NCBI GenBank assembly: GCA_037143235.1
Contig: JBAWZC010000004.1
Span: 1,776-65,775, forward strand
DNA length: 64,000 nucleotides
Origin: Candidatus Berkelbacteria bacterium
Lineage (GTDB): Bacteria > Patescibacteriota > UBA1384 > XYA2-FULL-43-10 > 1-14-0-10-43-13
Direction: 5' to 3'
Below the pieces are notes generated by a model that did not search any database, was not told the DNA's origin, and worked only from the letters and a program-made list of their open reading frames with translations. Made by a program: the position numbers and the translations under genes. Below, one piece after another: positions 29,527 through 35,894 of the stretch. The first letter of the stretch is position 1; each line of letters starts with the position of its first letter.

Positions 29527-29575
29527 TTGGCGGCACCCTAAGCGTGTCAATTGCCAAGCTTAGCTTGGCGGAGGA
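29527..29575. repeat. Copy 1 of a roughly 50-bp intergenic repeat (TTGGCGGCACCCTAAGCGTGTCAATTGCCAAGCTTAGCTTGGCGGAGG). Its 5' part resembles a tRNA 3' acceptor end.
   Basis: Related copies at 30327-30373 and 31877-31926. The CTAAGCGTG hairpin core also follows tRNA-Pro (41283) and precedes the tRNA-Lys scar (48139). Confidence 0.7.
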
Positions 29576-30326: not shown

Positions 30327-30373
30327 TTAGCGGCGCTATCAACACGTCAATCGCTAAGCTCGGCTTAGCGAAG
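30327..30373. repeat. Copy 2 (more diverged) of the CTAAGCGTG-type intergenic repeat
   Basis: TTTAGCGGCGCTATCAACACGTCAATCGCTAAGCTCGGCTTAGCGAAG. Confidence 0.55.
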
Positions 30374-30399: not shown

Positions 30400-31806
30400 T
30401 TAAACCGCCAAAGGATATAGCTCAAGCTCTGTCCTCTGCGGTCGACTACCTTTGTCTGGCCTTTTGTGATGGCTTCCTTTTTGGATGGCGACTCCACCGT
30501 CTGGCCATATATGTACTCCGCCCATACAAGCGCCGGGGTCTGCATCCTCTTCATATTTCGGATTATCGTCGTGCTCTTTCCAGTGGCTTACAGATCCAGT
30601 TTGCACACGATAATAATATGCTTGATGTTGTTCGTCCATGCCTGAAGTTAATTTCAGTTCATTTACATATTTAATTAATGGAGCTCTTACTAATTCCTCG
30701 AATTCTCTATGCTCAGGAGAGCCATCTTCGTCAAGGCGAAAGACAATATTTAGTGGAAGACCCTGAAAAGCCAAGATCACGTTTTTCATATGCTCTCTAT
30801 ATTGATTTAGGTCTTTTCTTGCCAACCCTTCTGAAGGCGAGATGCTAATCCTGATATCTGAGAGTAAATATGGCTGTTCATTGCAAAGTTCGACAATTTT
30901 CTTGGCTGCAATAGGGCCTAGTTGGTCGCCTTCCTGCCAACCCGCTGTCGAGATAAATACTGGACGAAGAGGGGTGGCAATCATGCGAAAAGCATCACCA
31001 AGGTCAGCTATCTGTCCGTTCTCGTGGCGTAGGCTTGTGTCTCGCCAGTCAAATGGGTCACTGTCATTGAAAATATTAAGCTCTCTGCGAAAAGTATACG
31101 GGCTTAGGGGATAGTAATGTCGAAGAAATTGAAAAGTCCGACGGGGATCATTGCGATCTATCGGCACGGGAGGTACCTTTCCTTCTGGTTGATCGAAGTA
31201 TTTGGAAATCTCTTGGCCTGAGAATTCCTTTTCTATCGTCCTGATCAGTAAAATAGCATCTTCGGTAAAACCCTTATCAACTTGTTCTTTAAACCAATTA
31301 AGGTCAATCTTATTAAGATTAGTCCCGGTGATATTTTCAATATGCGTTGACCAGTCATCCCAGACTTTTTCGACTGGTATTTTTGACTTTTCAATCTCTT
31401 CGCCAATTTTGCCGATCATTACCAACGGCATTGATGTTAAGGGCTGGTCGACCCGATCGCACATTTCGCATTGATGGGAGCAGCCTTTTGTTATTTGGAC
31501 GCAAGATAAATTTTGGTAACCAAACACAACCTCTTTTTCATGGTCGGTCAGATGGACATCATCGAATAGATCAAGGCGCGGATTCTCAACCGTAGGTAGT
31601 TCCTTTGCAATTTCAGTAATTAAATCATCCGACCCATCGGCAATAGCATTCTCGACCCGAGCCCTTATAGCCTCACCTGCCTTAGAGAATGGGACGGTTC
31701 GCCGAAGAAAATTTTGGCAGCGTTCAGTTAAGATGCGTTGCTCTTTATCCTTGGGTTTGTCCTGATCCTCACTGTCGGGTTGTTCGGAGTGATTAAGTCT
31801 GTCCAT
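30400..31806 (-). CDS. Radical SAM domain protein of unassigned subfamily (468 aa)
   Basis: CxxxCxxC cluster in ITKGCSHQCEMCDR at about residue 108. No SPASM-like Cys-rich tail is evident. Confidence 0.7.
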   Translation of the reverse strand: MDRLNHSEQPDSEDQDKPKDKEQRILTERCQNFLRRTVPFSKAGEAIRARVENAIADGSDDLITEIAKELPTVENPRLDLFDDVHLTDHEKEVVFGYQNLSCVQITKGCSHQCEMCDRVDQPLTSMPLVMIGKIGEEIEKSKIPVEKVWDDWSTHIENITGTNLNKIDLNWFKEQVDKGFTEDAILLIRTIEKEFSGQEISKYFDQPEGKVPPVPIDRNDPRRTFQFLRHYYPLSPYTFRRELNIFNDSDPFDWRDTSLRHENGQIADLGDAFRMIATPLRPVFISTAGWQEGDQLGPIAAKKIVELCNEQPYLLSDIRISISPSEGLARKDLNQYREHMKNVILAFQGLPLNIVFRLDEDGSPEHREFEELVRAPLIKYVNELKLTSGMDEQHQAYYYRVQTGSVSHWKEHDDNPKYEEDADPGACMGGVHIWPDGGVAIQKGSHHKRPDKGSRPQRTELELYPLAV

Positions 31807-31876
31807 AATATTATTTTATCATTTTTTCCAGATGACTGGAATTTTTGTATATAAAAAAATCAATCCAGATAGTTTA

Positions 31877-31926
31877 TTGGCGGCAGGCTAAGCGTGCTAA
31901 ATGCCAAACTGAGCTTGTCGGGAGCA
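31877..31926. repeat. Copy 3 of the CTAAGCGTG-type repeat, fused to a duplicated tRNA-Asp flank (31848-31883)
   Basis: ATTGGCGGCAGGCTAAGCGTGCTAAATGCCAAACTGAGCTTGTCGGGAGC. It is preceded by TATATAAAAAAATCAATCCAGATAGTTTATTGGCGG, which recurs at 33357-33391 next to tRNA-Asp. Confidence 0.65.
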
Positions 31927-31937
31927 TGTGGGGGATG

Positions 31938-32357
31938 TTAGAACTTTTTGCTTAAGTATCCATTGTCAATTAAAAATGGAATTATTTGCTCTGTGATTGA
32001 TGGGGGAAGCTTGATTCCTTTTTCTTTATAATCACTTGAGATATAAGCAAATTCTTCGAGTTCGTCATCTTGAATGACTGGTTCTCCTATAATTTCAACT
32101 AGGAAGGCAGATAGCTTGACAATTGCGTCATCAAAAATTGCCTTCGACTCGAAATCTCTGAGTTTTTTAATGATATTAATATCGCAGCCTATTTCTTCGT
32201 TTACCTCGCGAGCTAAAGCGACTTTTTCAGTTTCGCCTATTTCCGGTTTTCCGCCTAAATTAGTCCAAATATCTTTTCCCTTTTTACGAACCATAATAAA
32301 GGAGTCATTTTTGATTGAAATGGCGATAATTTTATGAATTATTTTCATTTTTTGCAC
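31938..32357 (-). CDS. NUDIX hydrolase
   Basis: Nudix box GGKPEIGETEKVALAREVNEEIG. Confidence 0.8.
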   Translation of the reverse strand: MQKMKIIHKIIAISIKNDSFIMVRKKGKDIWTNLGGKPEIGETEKVALAREVNEEIGCDINIIKKLRDFESKAIFDDAIVKLSAFLVEIIGEPVIQDDELEEFAYISSDYKEKGIKLPPSITEQIIPFLIDNGYLSKKF

Positions 32358-33292
32358 AACTTTAATTTTTTGGTATCGATGAATATTTTCTTTGTATTTT
32401 GTTCTGATTTTGTTGTGGTTTTTACTTGTCCTAAGTCTAACAAGTTTCCACTAAAATGGCCAGTTGAATATGCAGTGATCACTTTTTTGTGCCAATTTAA
32501 ATCGTTTATCGTTCGGCCAGCAATTTTGAACCACCTAATTCCTCTTCTTTGATATTCGTCCATCCATTCAGGAAGAACGAAATAACCTTTTAGAATATCT
32601 TCGGTTTTACTCATAAAAAAGCCAGAACAAAGATTGTATGGGAAATTGTCAAAGTGTTGATCGCTGGATTTGTAGTTGTCGGCTAATCCTTGCAAAATAT
32701 AATGGCAATTTCTCATCAAACAATCACCGCAGAATTCGTTGACTAAAATCTCGAATTCAGCATCTTTTACTTCATTCAATTTATCTAACAATCCAAAATT
32801 TCTGTTTGTTCTTAGATCAAGAATTATTCTTTTCGCCCCAAGCCATTTGGCTTGTTCAATTCTCGGAATCGAATCAATCCCCATAATCGTGCTAGTGACA
32901 ACATTAAAATCGGAAAATTTTTGCTTTATGAATTCCATTGCTAACGGCGAAGAAACCGTGATAGTTTTAATTCCTATTTTATTTAGATTGATTAGCAGCC
33001 CTTTGATATCATTATCCAAATCTTTTAAAGTAATCGCCGGAGAATTAAGCGCGTAATTAAATCCTATGTTTATTGTTGATAATTTATCAACAAACAATCC
33101 GAGTTTGTTTATTGTGATAGCTGGCAATCTTGAAGATTCGCGTGCAGTATATTTTGGCAATGAGCCGTAAACCTCTTTAATTTTTGCACTACCTTGTACT
33201 TCATTAATCGATTTGTAAAAATTAATTGCATTTTCATGAAAAATAAATGGCACCGACAACAAGGCGTTAGGTTGTTTTGATTGTGTTTGCAT
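32345..33292 (-). CDS. Divergent peptidase-U32-family-like TIM-barrel protein with a Cys cluster. The family assignment is tentative.
   Basis: LGAKRIILDLRTN and EFEILVNEFCGDCLMRNCHYIL ... NLCSGFF parallel the U32 core (lGakRvvLaREL ... EvFvHGalC..SGrC..S). The Cys spacing resembles the Fe-S site of UbiU/UbiV/TrhP-type U32 hydroxylases. Confidence 0.4.
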   Translation of the reverse strand: MQTQSKQPNALLSVPFIFHENAINFYKSINEVQGSAKIKEVYGSLPKYTARESSRLPAITINKLGLFVDKLSTINIGFNYALNSPAITLKDLDNDIKGLLINLNKIGIKTITVSSPLAMEFIKQKFSDFNVVTSTIMGIDSIPRIEQAKWLGAKRIILDLRTNRNFGLLDKLNEVKDAEFEILVNEFCGDCLMRNCHYILQGLADNYKSSDQHFDNFPYNLCSGFFMSKTEDILKGYFVLPEWMDEYQRRGIRWFKIAGRTINDLNWHKKVITAYSTGHFSGNLLDLGQVKTTTKSEQNTKKIFIDTKKLKLCKK

Positions 33293-33385
33293 AAATTTAT
33301 TATACCAAAATATATAATTTGCGATATGGAATACCAGGTCAAAATTATAAAAAGATGTATAAAAAAATCAATCCAAATAGTTTAT

Positions 33386-33462
33386 TGGCGGGATCGGCCG
33401 GATTCGAACCGGTGACCTCCACAGTGACAGTGTGGCGTTCTAACCAACTGAACTACGACCCC
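33386..33462 (-). tRNA. tRNA-Asp (anticodon GTC)
   Basis: Hand-folded: acceptor GGGGTCG/CGATCCC, anticodon loop CTGTCAC, T-loop TTCGAAT, CCA encoded. Confidence 0.85.
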
Positions 33463-33557
33463 GCGGTAAACTATTTGGATTGATTTTTCTGTCGCAAAGA
33501 ATCACGACACTAAGATAATAGCATTTTTAGGAAGATTATTCAATCCTAAATATCTTT

Positions 33558-33774: not shown

Positions 33775-34515
33775 TTATTTGATAAAGTGTGCCCTTGCTT
33801 GCGCTTCAAATCGGTCATCGATTTTCTCTAGCGTGATTTCTTCAGCATATTTGATCTGCAGCGTTTTTTTGATTATCCAGTCAGCCAGTTCAGGATTTTT
33901 GGCCAAGACTGGACCGTGCAAATAGGTGCCGATAGAATTGTGATAGATTGCTCCTTCGTCACCGCCATGTTCACTGTTGCCGAAACCTGCTGTGATTTGG
34001 CCGAAAGCCTGCATCTCTCTACCGAGAAATGTTTGACCCCCATGATTTTCAAAGCCAATCACTATCTGTTCGGCAGTGTCCGGCAACTTTGCCTTAATAC
34101 TGATATTGCCGATCAATCGTTTCGCCCCAGTATTTTCAGTGTGTAGATCAAAGATGCCAAGCCCATGAATCTTTTTGCCTTGCGCAGTGATATAGTATTG
34201 CCCGAGCAGCTGGTAGGCGCCACAAATATAAAGTCCGGGGATGCCTTTTTCAATTGCCTTTTTTAGCGCAGCTTTCTTTGCCATCAGGCTCTCAAAGATA
34301 ATTTCTTGCTGGCGATCTTGAGCTCCGCCCATAAATAGAAAATCTACTGCTGCAATCTCAGTTGGGTCGCTTTTGATCGAAATCGGTCTAATCTCTGTGT
34401 CGATATTGCGTTCATGACACCGATTGGTCAGTATCAGGATATTGCCTCTGTCTCCGTAAGTGTTCATAAATTCGGGATACAGCCAGCCAATGATGATTTT
34501 TTTGTTCTGGTTCAT
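33775..34515 (-). CDS. gatD: Lipid II isoglutaminyl synthase, glutamine amidotransferase subunit GatD (CobQ-like GATase)
   Basis: GWLYPEFMNTYGDRGN, LYICGAYQLLG and the HGP region. Overlaps and follows murT. Confidence 0.8.
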   Translation of the reverse strand: MNQNKKIIIGWLYPEFMNTYGDRGNILILTNRCHERNIDTEIRPISIKSDPTEIAAVDFLFMGGAQDRQQEIIFESLMAKKAALKKAIEKGIPGLYICGAYQLLGQYYITAQGKKIHGLGIFDLHTENTGAKRLIGNISIKAKLPDTAEQIVIGFENHGGQTFLGREMQAFGQITAGFGNSEHGGDEGAIYHNSIGTYLHGPVLAKNPELADWIIKKTLQIKYAEEITLEKIDDRFEAQARAHFIK

Positions 34516-35894
34516 TTTTTAATCTCCATCGAGTCCCCAGTCAATATTTTTCGCAGTTCTAGCATTTGTGAATAGACCGGCAGGACAAAAATTGTTTCAC
34601 CAGCTTCACTTGCGGAAATTACAGTTGATAGTATTTTGGTGATTGATTCGTCAGCAATAATTTTTTCGTCAAAACTCGTTTTTCTGCTGTTCTGACTGTT
34701 TTCTCGCATCGCGTATTTAATCCTGATCGCCATATCGTATGCTCGACCACCGGCGATCCAGACCTTGTCGGTATTATCGACCAGTCGCTCATAATTTACA
34801 TCCCAAATCCAGGAAACATCCCGTCCATCGGGAATAGCATCATTCAAAAGTAGTAAAACTTTTTTGTTTTTTTCTTTGGAGTTCACTATCAGATCGATCG
34901 ACTGATTAAATCCAACAGGATTTTTCGACAATTGGATCCAGATTTTTCGCCCCTGATACTCGATAATTTCTTGGCGTCCGAAAGCCGGCAGAAAGTCCTC
35001 GATGTCAGCATTAATTTTTTCTGGCTCTATTTGAAAAATTTTTTTCAAGACCAGGGCCACCGCACTCAGATTGTATCGATTGAAAGTGCCAGAGAGGGGA
35101 CTTACGATATTTTTTGATAGGTCGGTTATTTCTCCTGCATTGCCGCCACAGTGATCGCAGCTGAAAACTCCGATATGAGAATAGGCAATGCAAGAAAATG
35201 ATAGGGAGGACAAACAGATTGGGCAGTAGGTGGCGTCTGCTTCGATCGAAGTAGTGTCATTTTTTTCAATTTGTTCCTCGCTGATGCCGAAATAATTAAC
35301 TTTTTGTAATAACTTTTGGCCGAGAAAAAATAGGTTTGGGTCTTGGCCATTTAGAAATATTTGCGGAGCAGGGGAGAGACCGACGATGCTTTTTTCCCAT
35401 TTATCTCTGATCGCATCGATCTCGCCATAGCGATCTAGCTGATCGCGAAATAAATTCAAGGCCAAGATAGCAGTCGGCTCAAATTGTTTGAGGCACTGTG
35501 GCAGAGCGTTTTCGTCAACCTCTAGGATCGCCACATCGGCTTTGATCTGGCCGAAAATATTGGCATTATTTATCAGTGTCGAGGTGATGCCGTTTAGCAG
35601 GTTTGCCCCAGTCGTATTCGAAAAGGTCTTATGTCCATTTTTTGTAAGAACATGTGTCAGCAATTTCGCGCAGGTAGTTTTGCCGTTTGTGCCGACAATC
35701 AAAATTGTTTTTAAATGCTTATTCTTCTGCAACAGGACATCGACAAAGTTTTTTTCAAGTTTTAGGGCAATATGACCAGGCCAAGTTGCGCCATGGCCGA
35801 TCTTGAGCGAGCGAATGCCAAAAAGAATGGACTTTGTCAGCGCGACCAGTGCTACCGTTTTGATCCCGTCAGTTGTGGTATTTTTTCGTCTCAT
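34512..35894 (-). CDS. murT: Lipid II isoglutaminyl synthase, Mur-ligase-family subunit MurT
   Basis: P-loop VGTNGKTTCAKLL and Cys-rich ribbon CPICLSSLSFSCIAYSHIGVFSCDHCGG, plus the C-terminal DUF1727-like region. Confidence 0.85.
   Translation of the reverse strand: MRRKNTTTDGIKTVALVALTKSILFGIRSLKIGHGATWPGHIALKLEKNFVDVLLQKNKHLKTILIVGTNGKTTCAKLLTHVLTKNGHKTFSNTTGANLLNGITSTLINNANIFGQIKADVAILEVDENALPQCLKQFEPTAILALNLFRDQLDRYGEIDAIRDKWEKSIVGLSPAPQIFLNGQDPNLFFLGQKLLQKVNYFGISEEQIEKNDTTSIEADATYCPICLSSLSFSCIAYSHIGVFSCDHCGGNAGEITDLSKNIVSPLSGTFNRYNLSAVALVLKKIFQIEPEKINADIEDFLPAFGRQEIIEYQGRKIWIQLSKNPVGFNQSIDLIVNSKEKNKKVLLLLNDAIPDGRDVSWIWDVNYERLVDNTDKVWIAGGRAYDMAIRIKYAMRENSQNSRKTSFDEKIIADESITKILSTVISASEAGETIFVLPVYSQMLELRKILTGDSMEIKK

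Follow-up and report, generated by a model that had tools for sequence, protein, structure and literature searches.

All U32 enzymes whose substrates are known hydroxylate without O2, and for two of them the target is pyrimidine C5 (PMC5727448, PMC6599085, PMC10990095, PMC11574389). These are the prephenate-dependent hydroxylases TrhP (YegQ; tRNA U34) and RlhA (YdcP; 23S rRNA C2501), while UbiU/UbiV, together with UbiT, are anaerobic ubiquinone hydroxylases that perform 4Fe-4S, O2-independent hydroxylation (PMC10990095, PMC11574389). The canonical 4Fe-4S motif of the family consists of four cysteines, CX6CX15CX3C (PMC11574389), and the oxygen donor of characterised members is prephenate, the product of chorismate mutase (PMC10990095, PMC6599085, PMC5727448). 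In phages T4 (gp56 + gp42) and RB69 (gp28 + gp48, the latter being the synthase of 5-hydroxydeoxycytidine monophosphate, 5-hydroxy-dCMP or 5hodCMP), a pyrophosphohydrolase delivers a monophosphate to a base modifier. The RB69-type 5-hydroxy-dCMP maker is a ThyA homologue using flavin and O2 (Lee et al. 2026, PMC13326640), and its 5-hydroxycytosine (5hoC) product is established in RB69 and DLP3 (PMC13326640). Here we describe a locus in a 64 kb stretch of a Candidatus Berkelbacteria contig (hereafter the window) in which genes for a U32-like protein, a NUDIX hydrolase and a radical S-adenosylmethionine (SAM) enzyme follow one another, all on the minus strand. We show that the locus is composed of two independent units, an acquired U32+NUDIX cassette, conserved and coupled, and an orphan radical SAM gene native to the genome. 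Tentatively, and a little short of an even call, we read the first of the two as a cassette for O2-independent hydroxylation of pyrimidine nucleotides.

The U32-like protein of the window shares with TrhP and RlhA the U32 TIM barrel, Fe-S ligand positions 1-3 and, as proposed below, O2-independent hydroxylation at pyrimidine C5 (PMC6599085, PMC5727448). It differs from them in sequence (16% identity), in altered CX6CX15CX3C and HGALC motifs, and in having no C-terminal RNA-side domains; its probable substrate is a free nucleotide instead of RNA, and no prephenate source is evident in the host. With UbiU/UbiV it has in common the family and possibly 4Fe-4S-based O2-independent hydroxylation, but identity is 14-16%, there is neither a paralogue pair nor an SCP2 partner, and the substrate class and context are unrelated. 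The order of steps proposed for NUDIX+U32 is that of the T4 and RB69 systems, in which, however, the modifiers are thymidylate synthase homologues (flavin/O2-dependent in RB69), whereas a putative Fe-S U32 protein would take this role here; the hydrolase is here a NUDIX protein, and the window has no downstream kinase or glycosyltransferase. Phage proteins of the RB69 gp50 type belong to the same U32 subfamily as the window protein, sharing with it Cys1-3 and a putative ligand residue at the position of H197. Like the window protein they are uncharacterised, and they are embedded among deoxynucleotide-modification genes. They differ in their length (~ 375 aa), in a retained C-terminal tail, in a Cys replacing His197, and in gene neighbourhood, with a chorismate mutase gene next to them and the ThyA-like 5hodCMP synthase adjoining. 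Phage loci are without a NUDIX partner and instead include a MazG-type dCTPase, as annotated (PMC13326640).

Organization of the locus

The three open reading frames (ORFs) of an earlier note on this DNA were recovered on the minus strand at 30400-31806, 32345-33292 and, when the NUDIX gene is counted from a GTG start, 31938-32357. Proteins with 100% identity to the 468-aa and 315-aa products are encoded in a Candidatus Berkelbacteria metagenome-assembled genome (MAG; NCBI). The locus comprises the following features:

30400..31806, minus strand: divergent radical SAM enzyme, 468 aa, outside the cassette (family, fold, context, native GC)
31850..31883, no strand: direct repeat copy B, directly after the NUDIX gene (repeat search, DNA pattern search)
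31877..31921, no strand: 45-nt palindrome-containing intergenic element, with copies at 30327-30371 and 29527-29571 (repeat search, folds)
31938..32348, minus strand: NUDIX hydrolase, 136 aa from the ATG at 32348 (139 aa from the GTG at 32357) (PF00293)
32345..33292, minus strand: U32-family TIM-barrel protein, putatively Fe-S, 315 aa (ORF list, PF01136)
33358..33391, no strand: direct repeat copy A, comprising the final 6 nt of tRNA-Asp and its 3' flank (repeat search)
33386..33462, minus strand: tRNA-Asp (GTC), last gene of a Gly-Thr-Asp tRNA cluster (ARAGORN)

The previously noted 13-nt overlap of the U32 and NUDIX genes applies if the GTG start is used; from the in-frame ATG at 32348 the overlap is 4 nt, with the U32 stop and the NUDIX ATG joined as ATGA (..AAAAAATGAAAAT..). 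These two genes are tightly packed, but the radical SAM gene is not, being 131 nt from the NUDIX stop with two repeat elements in the spacer. A promoter-like site, TTGATT-16-TATAAT (33371-33344, 10/12), is located 52 nt upstream of the U32 start, and its -35 hexamer falls inside direct repeat copy A. Terminator-like hairpins with U-tracts are present 3' of the radical SAM gene and of the DUF218 gene.

Repeats and base composition

Copies A and B of the 34-nt direct repeat match at 33/34 nt. Since copy A is positioned at the end of tRNA-Asp and copy B just after the NUDIX stop, the repeats bracket exactly the U32 and NUDIX genes. The 22-nt core of the repeat was found in three copies in 64 kb, with 0 expected (DNA pattern search), the third copy being the inverted arm on the far side of tRNA-Asp. 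A perfect 22-nt inverted repeat (33363-33384 / 33467-33488, with a further arm copy at 31855-31876) encloses the tRNA gene, and direct repeat copy A doubles as its 3' arm. The predicted helix of the inverted repeat and acceptor stem (33355-33495) has an energy of -59 kcal/mol and a z of -7.75 versus shuffles; it could be a processing stem or the scar of a mobile element.

The 45-nt element, with its internal CCAAGCTnAGCTTGG palindrome, is found after each of three consecutive minus-strand genes, NUDIX, radical SAM and DUF218. A stricter 34-nt pattern (<= 3 mismatches) detects just two copies in the whole 64-kb window, at 29527 and 31877. This element was also considered as a tRNA-Asp fragment, in the manner of an att-type duplication, and rejected as such, as only the last ~ 6 nt of the tRNA and the 3' flank are duplicated.

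The U32 and NUDIX genes have GC contents of 33.3% and 33.8% (~ 31.5% at third codon positions), the radical SAM gene has 44.3%, and the mean of 20 other long ORFs in the window is 43.1 +/- 4.1%. ARAGORN and repeat searches reproduced the repeats and the adjacency to tRNA-Asp described earlier, while the accessory status proposed for the whole locus holds for U32+NUDIX, with their direct repeats and low GC, and not for the radical SAM gene, which has the genome's own composition. The first unit is a horizontally acquired two-gene cassette (31850-33391) inserted beside tRNA-Asp. Neither a U32 nor a NUDIX gene was detected within 6 kb of the radical SAM gene in 18 other loci (blastp E < 0.01), and the radical SAM gene is absent from the examined loci of six close U32 relatives; its closeness to the cassette is an accident of insertion.

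Conservation of the U32+NUDIX pair

Membership of the second protein in the NUDIX family, as proposed before, is substantiated by a PF00293 match (38.9 bits against a cut-off of 21.1; 1e-9) and an intact NUDIX box, G-x5-E-x7-REVNEEIG (GKPEIGETEKVALAREVNEEIG, read from the translation; model GX5EX7REUXEEXGU). Its best NCBIfam matches are of the MutT/NudG type and well under their cut-offs (PRK10776, 34.9 against 148; PRK10546, 28.9 against 156), and by these curated values it does not qualify as an equivalog of either. An orthologous NUDIX gene occurs 3' of U32 in the loci L094/L095, L007 and L096, which belong to three other lineages, and its identity of 60-66% is above the conservation of U32 itself. 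The 4-nt overlap of the two genes is also present in L094/L095 and L007. The U32 and NUDIX genes are a conserved, translationally coupled pair.

Family assignment and putative metal site of the U32-like protein

The U32-like protein matches PF01136 over the curated threshold (31.3 bits against 22.4, residues 97-275), and its family profile detects the U32 structure 5D88 at 1.2e-7, with a (beta/alpha)8 barrel like that of 5D88. The U32 assignment made in the earlier note is therefore upheld, as is the replacement of the HGA motif, which reads ..EIFVHGALC.. in TrhP and ..EILVNEFC.. in the window protein. The claimed likeness in cysteine spacing to UbiU/UbiV/TrhP/RlhA was borne out in part: C188, C191 and C222 align with Cys1-3, while Cys4 is absent, giving CX2CX5HX24C. 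H197 does not vary within the subfamily, and homologues from T4-like phages have Cys at this position, which suggests an alternative fourth ligand. Residues C188, C191, H197 and C222 are accordingly putative metal ligands.

Identity of the window protein to E. coli UbiU, UbiV, TrhP and RlhA is only 14-16%. In a neighbour-joining (NJ) tree (341 columns, 200 bootstraps) it groups with the NUDIX-linked relatives at 74.5% support and with all six proteins of the Candidate Phyla Radiation (CPR) type at 100%. Groups from Desulfobulbales and from methanogens are placed apart from it, and TrhP, RlhA and UbiU/V lie far away.

Genomic context of U32 relatives

The six closest U32 relatives share 36-50% identity with the window protein; in three of them the gene is followed by the orthologous NUDIX gene, and in two others by a gene for cytidine/dCMP deaminase. 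Neighbours of U32 in L006/L007 encode ThyA, dihydrofolate reductase (DHFR), serine hydroxymethyltransferase (SHMT), HD, kinases, dCMP deaminase and NUDIX. Those in L010/L011 encode nucleoside diphosphate kinase (NDK), cytidine deaminase, NTPase, O-methyltransferase, HD, uracil-DNA glycosylase (UDG) and NDK, and in L097 a cytidine deaminase gene adjoins U32. One relative is encoded in a viral genome (L008, identical with L116; IMG/VR) that carries SurE, a fusion of dCMP deaminase and TMP kinase, dCTP deaminase/dUTPase, primase, a FEN1-like protein and PolB. On other viral contigs the U32 gene is placed beside PolIII-alpha, PolA, dUTPase or UDG. The nucleotide-type substrate suggested previously is thus retained for U32+NUDIX, whose relatives are situated among genes for dCMP/cytidine deaminase, NDK, ThyA, dUTPase, UDG and DNA polymerase. 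From this fairly strong context evidence we infer that the cassette acts on free pyrimidine (deoxy)nucleotides. The U32 clade spans CPR bacteria and many viruses, in which it occurs among genes of deoxynucleotide metabolism and DNA replication, and it includes RB69 gp50.

In the metagenomic contig L010:27-6689 + L011, genes running in one direction encode NDK, U32, cytidine deaminase, an ITPase-like NTPase, a Methyltransf_2 O-methyltransferase, HD phosphohydrolase, UDG, an AAA_28 kinase and NDK. With these genes, every step to a 5-hydroxy- and then a 5-methoxy-pyrimidine dNTP would be covered.

Distant U32 relatives (27-31% identity) were found in Desulfobulbales, in anaerobic methanotrophs (ANME) and methanogens, and in Clostridia. 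As their contexts are quite different, they were left out of the functional inference. In Desulfobulbales they adjoin an NAD_binding_4/SCP2 reductase, a class-III aminotransferase, MMPL and a multihaem cytochrome, and in Methanoperedens, ANME and Methanococcoides they adjoin DUF5402 and the Mtr operon. These distant relatives (L015-L093) are a broad set derived from anaerobes only, and both groups appear to be uncharacterised.

Homologues in T4-like phages

The window protein matches PHROG 5757 (phrog_5757) at 5.3e-27, and its homologues were detected in 222-223 records of T4-like phages (29-31% identity over ~ 85%, E of 4e-24; tblastn). They include RB69 gp50 (RB69ORF050c, NP_861740), phiR1-RT g050 and Thanatos TH2_068. 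At the examined loci (phiR1-RT, Thanatos) the homologue is located inside the cluster for arabinosyl-5-hydroxycytosine (ara-5hoC). The gene next after it encodes a type II chorismate mutase (PF01817, cut-off 27 bits: phiR1-RT g048 at 36.0, Thanatos TH2_069 at 32.8). This gene was present in 6/6 T4-like viral loci tested, and one GenBank record carries the same annotation. The U32 homologue adjoins the ThyA-like 5hodCMP synthase in Yersinia phage phiR1-RT (L012:5971-8299) and in Shewanella phage Thanatos-2 (L013:5914-7304).

Homologues of the ThyA-like synthase were found in 343 phage records, of which 57 are Acinetobacter phages. The U32 gene was found in 222, and all genera listed for these belong to Enterobacterales or are Shewanella, with Acinetobacter not among them. 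In the cluster of Acinetobacter phage DLP1 (L131), the ThyA homologue comes directly after a HAD gene, and genes for U32 and chorismate mutase are absent. Acinetobacter is strictly aerobic, and the other hosts of these phages are facultative anaerobes. Taken with the chorismate mutase, this host-range pattern agrees with a second way of making 5-hydroxy-dCMP, one without O2, parallel to the pairs TrhP/TrhO and UbiUV/UbiIHF. Such an anaerobic, prephenate-dependent route to 5-hydroxy-dCMP is not discussed in the accessible literature.

Proposed activity of the cassette and alternative explanations

In the proposed scheme, the NUDIX enzyme, a MutT-like pyrophosphohydrolase, would act on a pyrimidine (deoxy)nucleoside triphosphate, for instance dCTP or CTP, to yield the monophosphate. 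The U32 enzyme, which may hold a [4Fe-4S] cluster on C188/C191/H197/C222, would then modify the free pyrimidine mononucleotide, most likely by O2-independent C5 hydroxylation, as TrhP and RlhA do on RNA. This would follow the same logic as phage dCTPase combined with dCMP hydroxymethylase or hydroxylase. Hydroxylation at C5, with NUDIX supplying the monophosphate, is thus suggested by analogy, on account of the family precedent, the phage chorismate mutase and the host-range pattern.

Several observations weigh against this scheme. The canonical four-Cys motif is not present in the window protein, and Cys4 is missing across the subfamily. The C-terminal CX4-6CX3CX2C tail, found in 30/30 other aligned members and in proteins of T4-like phages, is lost along with ~ 27 residues and three tail cysteines in the window protein, which ends in ..IDTKKLKLCKK; the window copy could thus have reduced function, or could do without a second metal site. 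The grouping of window and CPR proteins with viral proteins has a support of 61% only. No chorismate mutase was detected in the window, in CPR loci or in other viral loci with a hidden Markov model (HMM) built from only two sequences. CPR bacteria are usually without the shikimate pathway, so prephenate is a doubtful donor in the host. The hydroxylation reading is weakened in the CPR host by the missing prephenate source and by the truncated tail. In addition, no kinase, glycosyltransferase or polymerase partner that would use the modified nucleotide was found in the window. No convincing terminator was found after the NUDIX gene in the 131-nt spacer, nor a convincing promoter, and read-through into the radical SAM gene is therefore possible. 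Finally, the published label of RB69 gp50, given as a table entry without experiments, is 'sugar or heterocycle reductase' (PMC13326640).

This label is in line with an alternative in which the U32-like enzyme is an Fe-S reductase, dehydroxylase or other redox enzyme acting on a nucleotide, sugar or heterocycle, for example in deoxy-sugar making or in recycling of oxidised pyrimidines (5-hydroxy-dCMP) with NUDIX as sanitising partner. In Thanatos, which has the U32 homologue, 5hoC is decorated with a deoxypentose (PMC12838424). Sanitising is the typical role of NUDIX enzymes of the MutT/NudG type, and the NudG type is among the best NCBIfam matches of the window protein, all below cut-off. Three Cys and one His might also form a site-differentiated cluster, as in IspH-type reductases. 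On the other hand, no U32 protein is known for such chemistry, and the chorismate mutase beside the phage homologues points to prephenate-dependent hydroxylation. Moreover, RB69 has the gene and yet its sugar is arabinose, not deoxypentose (PMC13326640). We consider a redox function of this kind unlikely.

Still less probable is that the U32-like protein is an RNA hydroxylase equivalent to TrhP (ho5U34 in tRNA) or RlhA (ho5C2501 in 23S rRNA), with the NUDIX gene incidental. These two are the U32 enzymes known for pyrimidine C5 (PMC6599085, PMC5727448), and the gene does adjoin tRNA genes; but the protein, besides its 16% identity to them, forms a long separate branch, has no NCBIfam match, and is a bare barrel of 315 aa, whereas TrhP (453 aa) and RlhA (653 aa) continue into long C-terminal regions. 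Its NUDIX partner is conserved and coupled, and its relatives are found in deoxynucleotide and DNA-replication contexts, including virus genomes.

To a similarly low degree, the cassette might be a remnant, in decay and now functionless, of a module that came from a phage or by some other transfer. Loss of the Cys-rich tail with respect to 30/30 aligned relatives, foreign composition, flanking repeats and the lack of partner genes nearby would all agree with decay. Both ORFs are intact, however, the ATGA coupling and the NUDIX box are kept, the NUDIX protein is 60-66% identical to its orthologues, a strong promoter-like site is located upstream, and no such tail is needed by the canonical U32 enzymes of E. 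coli.

A small anti-phage or conflict cassette, in which U32+NUDIX would deplete or alter nucleotides on infection, is very improbable. The NUDIX protein does match the PADLOC candidate family PDC-S07 (1e-14), the cassette is acquired, and a retron-type reverse transcriptase is encoded 4 kb away. The match is nevertheless weak and generic, U32 and radical SAM proteins have no PADLOC match, and most relatives reside in virus genomes or in housekeeping clusters of nucleotide metabolism, not in defence islands; the anti-phage suggestion of the earlier note is not supported.

Hardly credible is the single operon with a three-step modification pathway on a nucleotide-linked substrate, as first proposed for U32, NUDIX and radical SAM, because the genes, although adjacent on one strand and open to read-through across a 131-nt spacer lacking a convincing terminator or promoter, do not co-occur in the 18 radical SAM loci or in the loci of six close U32 relatives, the cassette, as delimited by the direct repeats, stops short of the radical SAM gene, and GC is 33% against 44%.

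Radical SAM gene

The radical SAM gene, the second unit of the locus (30400-31806), is a native, stand-alone member of a divergent family. Its 468-aa product contains the motif C109-SHQ-C113-EM-C116 (CX3CX2C), all three cysteines of which are invariant in 63 sequences. The AlphaFold2 (AF2) model (pLDDT of 92.7) shows a partial TIM-barrel radical SAM fold. The protein has no match in Pfam/NCBIfam (E <= 0.1; including PF04055), PHROGs, PADLOC or PDB sequences, and PF04055 is reached only by distant family members (P0147, 29.7 bits against 29.5, others below). The invariant motif in 63 relatives, the confident fold and the distant members near the PF04055 threshold together confirm the radical SAM assignment of the earlier note; its view that no subfamily is recognisable likewise stands, as no well-known radical SAM family claimed the protein.

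Two features set the family apart from its radical SAM fold neighbours: an N-terminal helical domain, in which a PTVE motif is invariant, and a helical segment of ~ 110 aa inserted behind the cluster loop. Among the closest folds are SkfB, SuiB, ChlB, EpeE, BlsE, anSME, MoaA and viperin, at ~ 12% identity, and also BtrN. These neighbours, which include maturases of ribosomally synthesised and post-translationally modified peptides (RiPPs) and of proteins as well as sugar and nucleotide enzymes, do not discriminate between radical SAM roles. The only other conserved cysteine is C427, invariant in the 7 closest sequences and not across all 63, and no SPASM/twitch auxiliary Fe-S cysteine cluster was found in the protein.

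A word-indexed search returned 7 relatives, and a second one with the 63-sequence profile added none. Exhaustive profile search of representatives disclosed 178 radical SAM cluster representatives, 85 of them at E <= 1e-30. Few members are taxon-named; these are CPR bacteria (Berkelbacteria, Magasanikbacteria), together with two fused giants from Gammaproteobacteria and Omnitrophota MAGs. In giant proteins of 1,396-5,573 aa (P0130, P0133, P0140, P0139, P0064) the radical SAM domain is internal, and only HEAT or DnaJ domains could be recognised besides it.

No conserved neighbour of the radical SAM gene was detected when 19 loci were clustered, with no neighbour common to more than 3 loci. Immediate neighbours are mutually unrelated (bPH, CYTH, MFS, PMT_2, Gmad2, SecA). 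A DEAD-box helicase, present within a few kb in 3 loci, was considered as a partner and set aside as too weak to use.

Other genes in the window

The remaining window neighbours of the cassette are the tRNAs, GatD/MurT, the radical SAM gene and DUF218, and only the NUDIX gene is of nucleotide type. Homologues of GatD/MurT (lipid II isoglutaminyl synthase) are located at 33775-35894, directly upstream of the tRNA cluster, and score well under the NCBIfam equivalog cut-offs (206 against 400; 216 against 800). The segment 27159-28978 holds a gene for a retron-type reverse transcriptase, with two small ORFs for coiled-coil proteins (94 and 90 aa) after it and a 440-nt spacer upstream. The reverse transcriptase matches PADLOC RT_XIII at 7e-46 and the NCBIfam retron St85-type at 1.8e-37, the latter below cut-off.

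Implications

What had been taken as an operon is to be annotated as an acquired U32+NUDIX pair and an independent orphan radical SAM gene, the latter belonging to a sizeable unnamed family that Pfam misses. As to the U32 clade, comprising CPR, viral and RB69 gp50 proteins, it is possible, if on the unlikely side, that its members are the first Fe-S, O2-independent hydroxylases of free pyrimidine deoxynucleotides, giving anaerobes and their viruses 5-hydroxy-dCMP/dUMP. If true, the clade would be the anoxic counterpart of the O2/flavin-dependent ThyA-like 5hodCMP synthase, and DNA precursors would join RNA and quinones as targets of U32 chemistry. It would provide a rationale for the phage-borne chorismate mutase and, as the known synthase needs O2, would account for the replication in anoxic hosts of gut phages whose hypermodified DNA is 5-hydroxycytosine-based. 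The U32 protein of L010/L011 could then be the entry to unknown DNA bases such as 5-methoxy-pyrimidines, and further modified bases would be predicted in viruses of anaerobes and in CPR bacteria.

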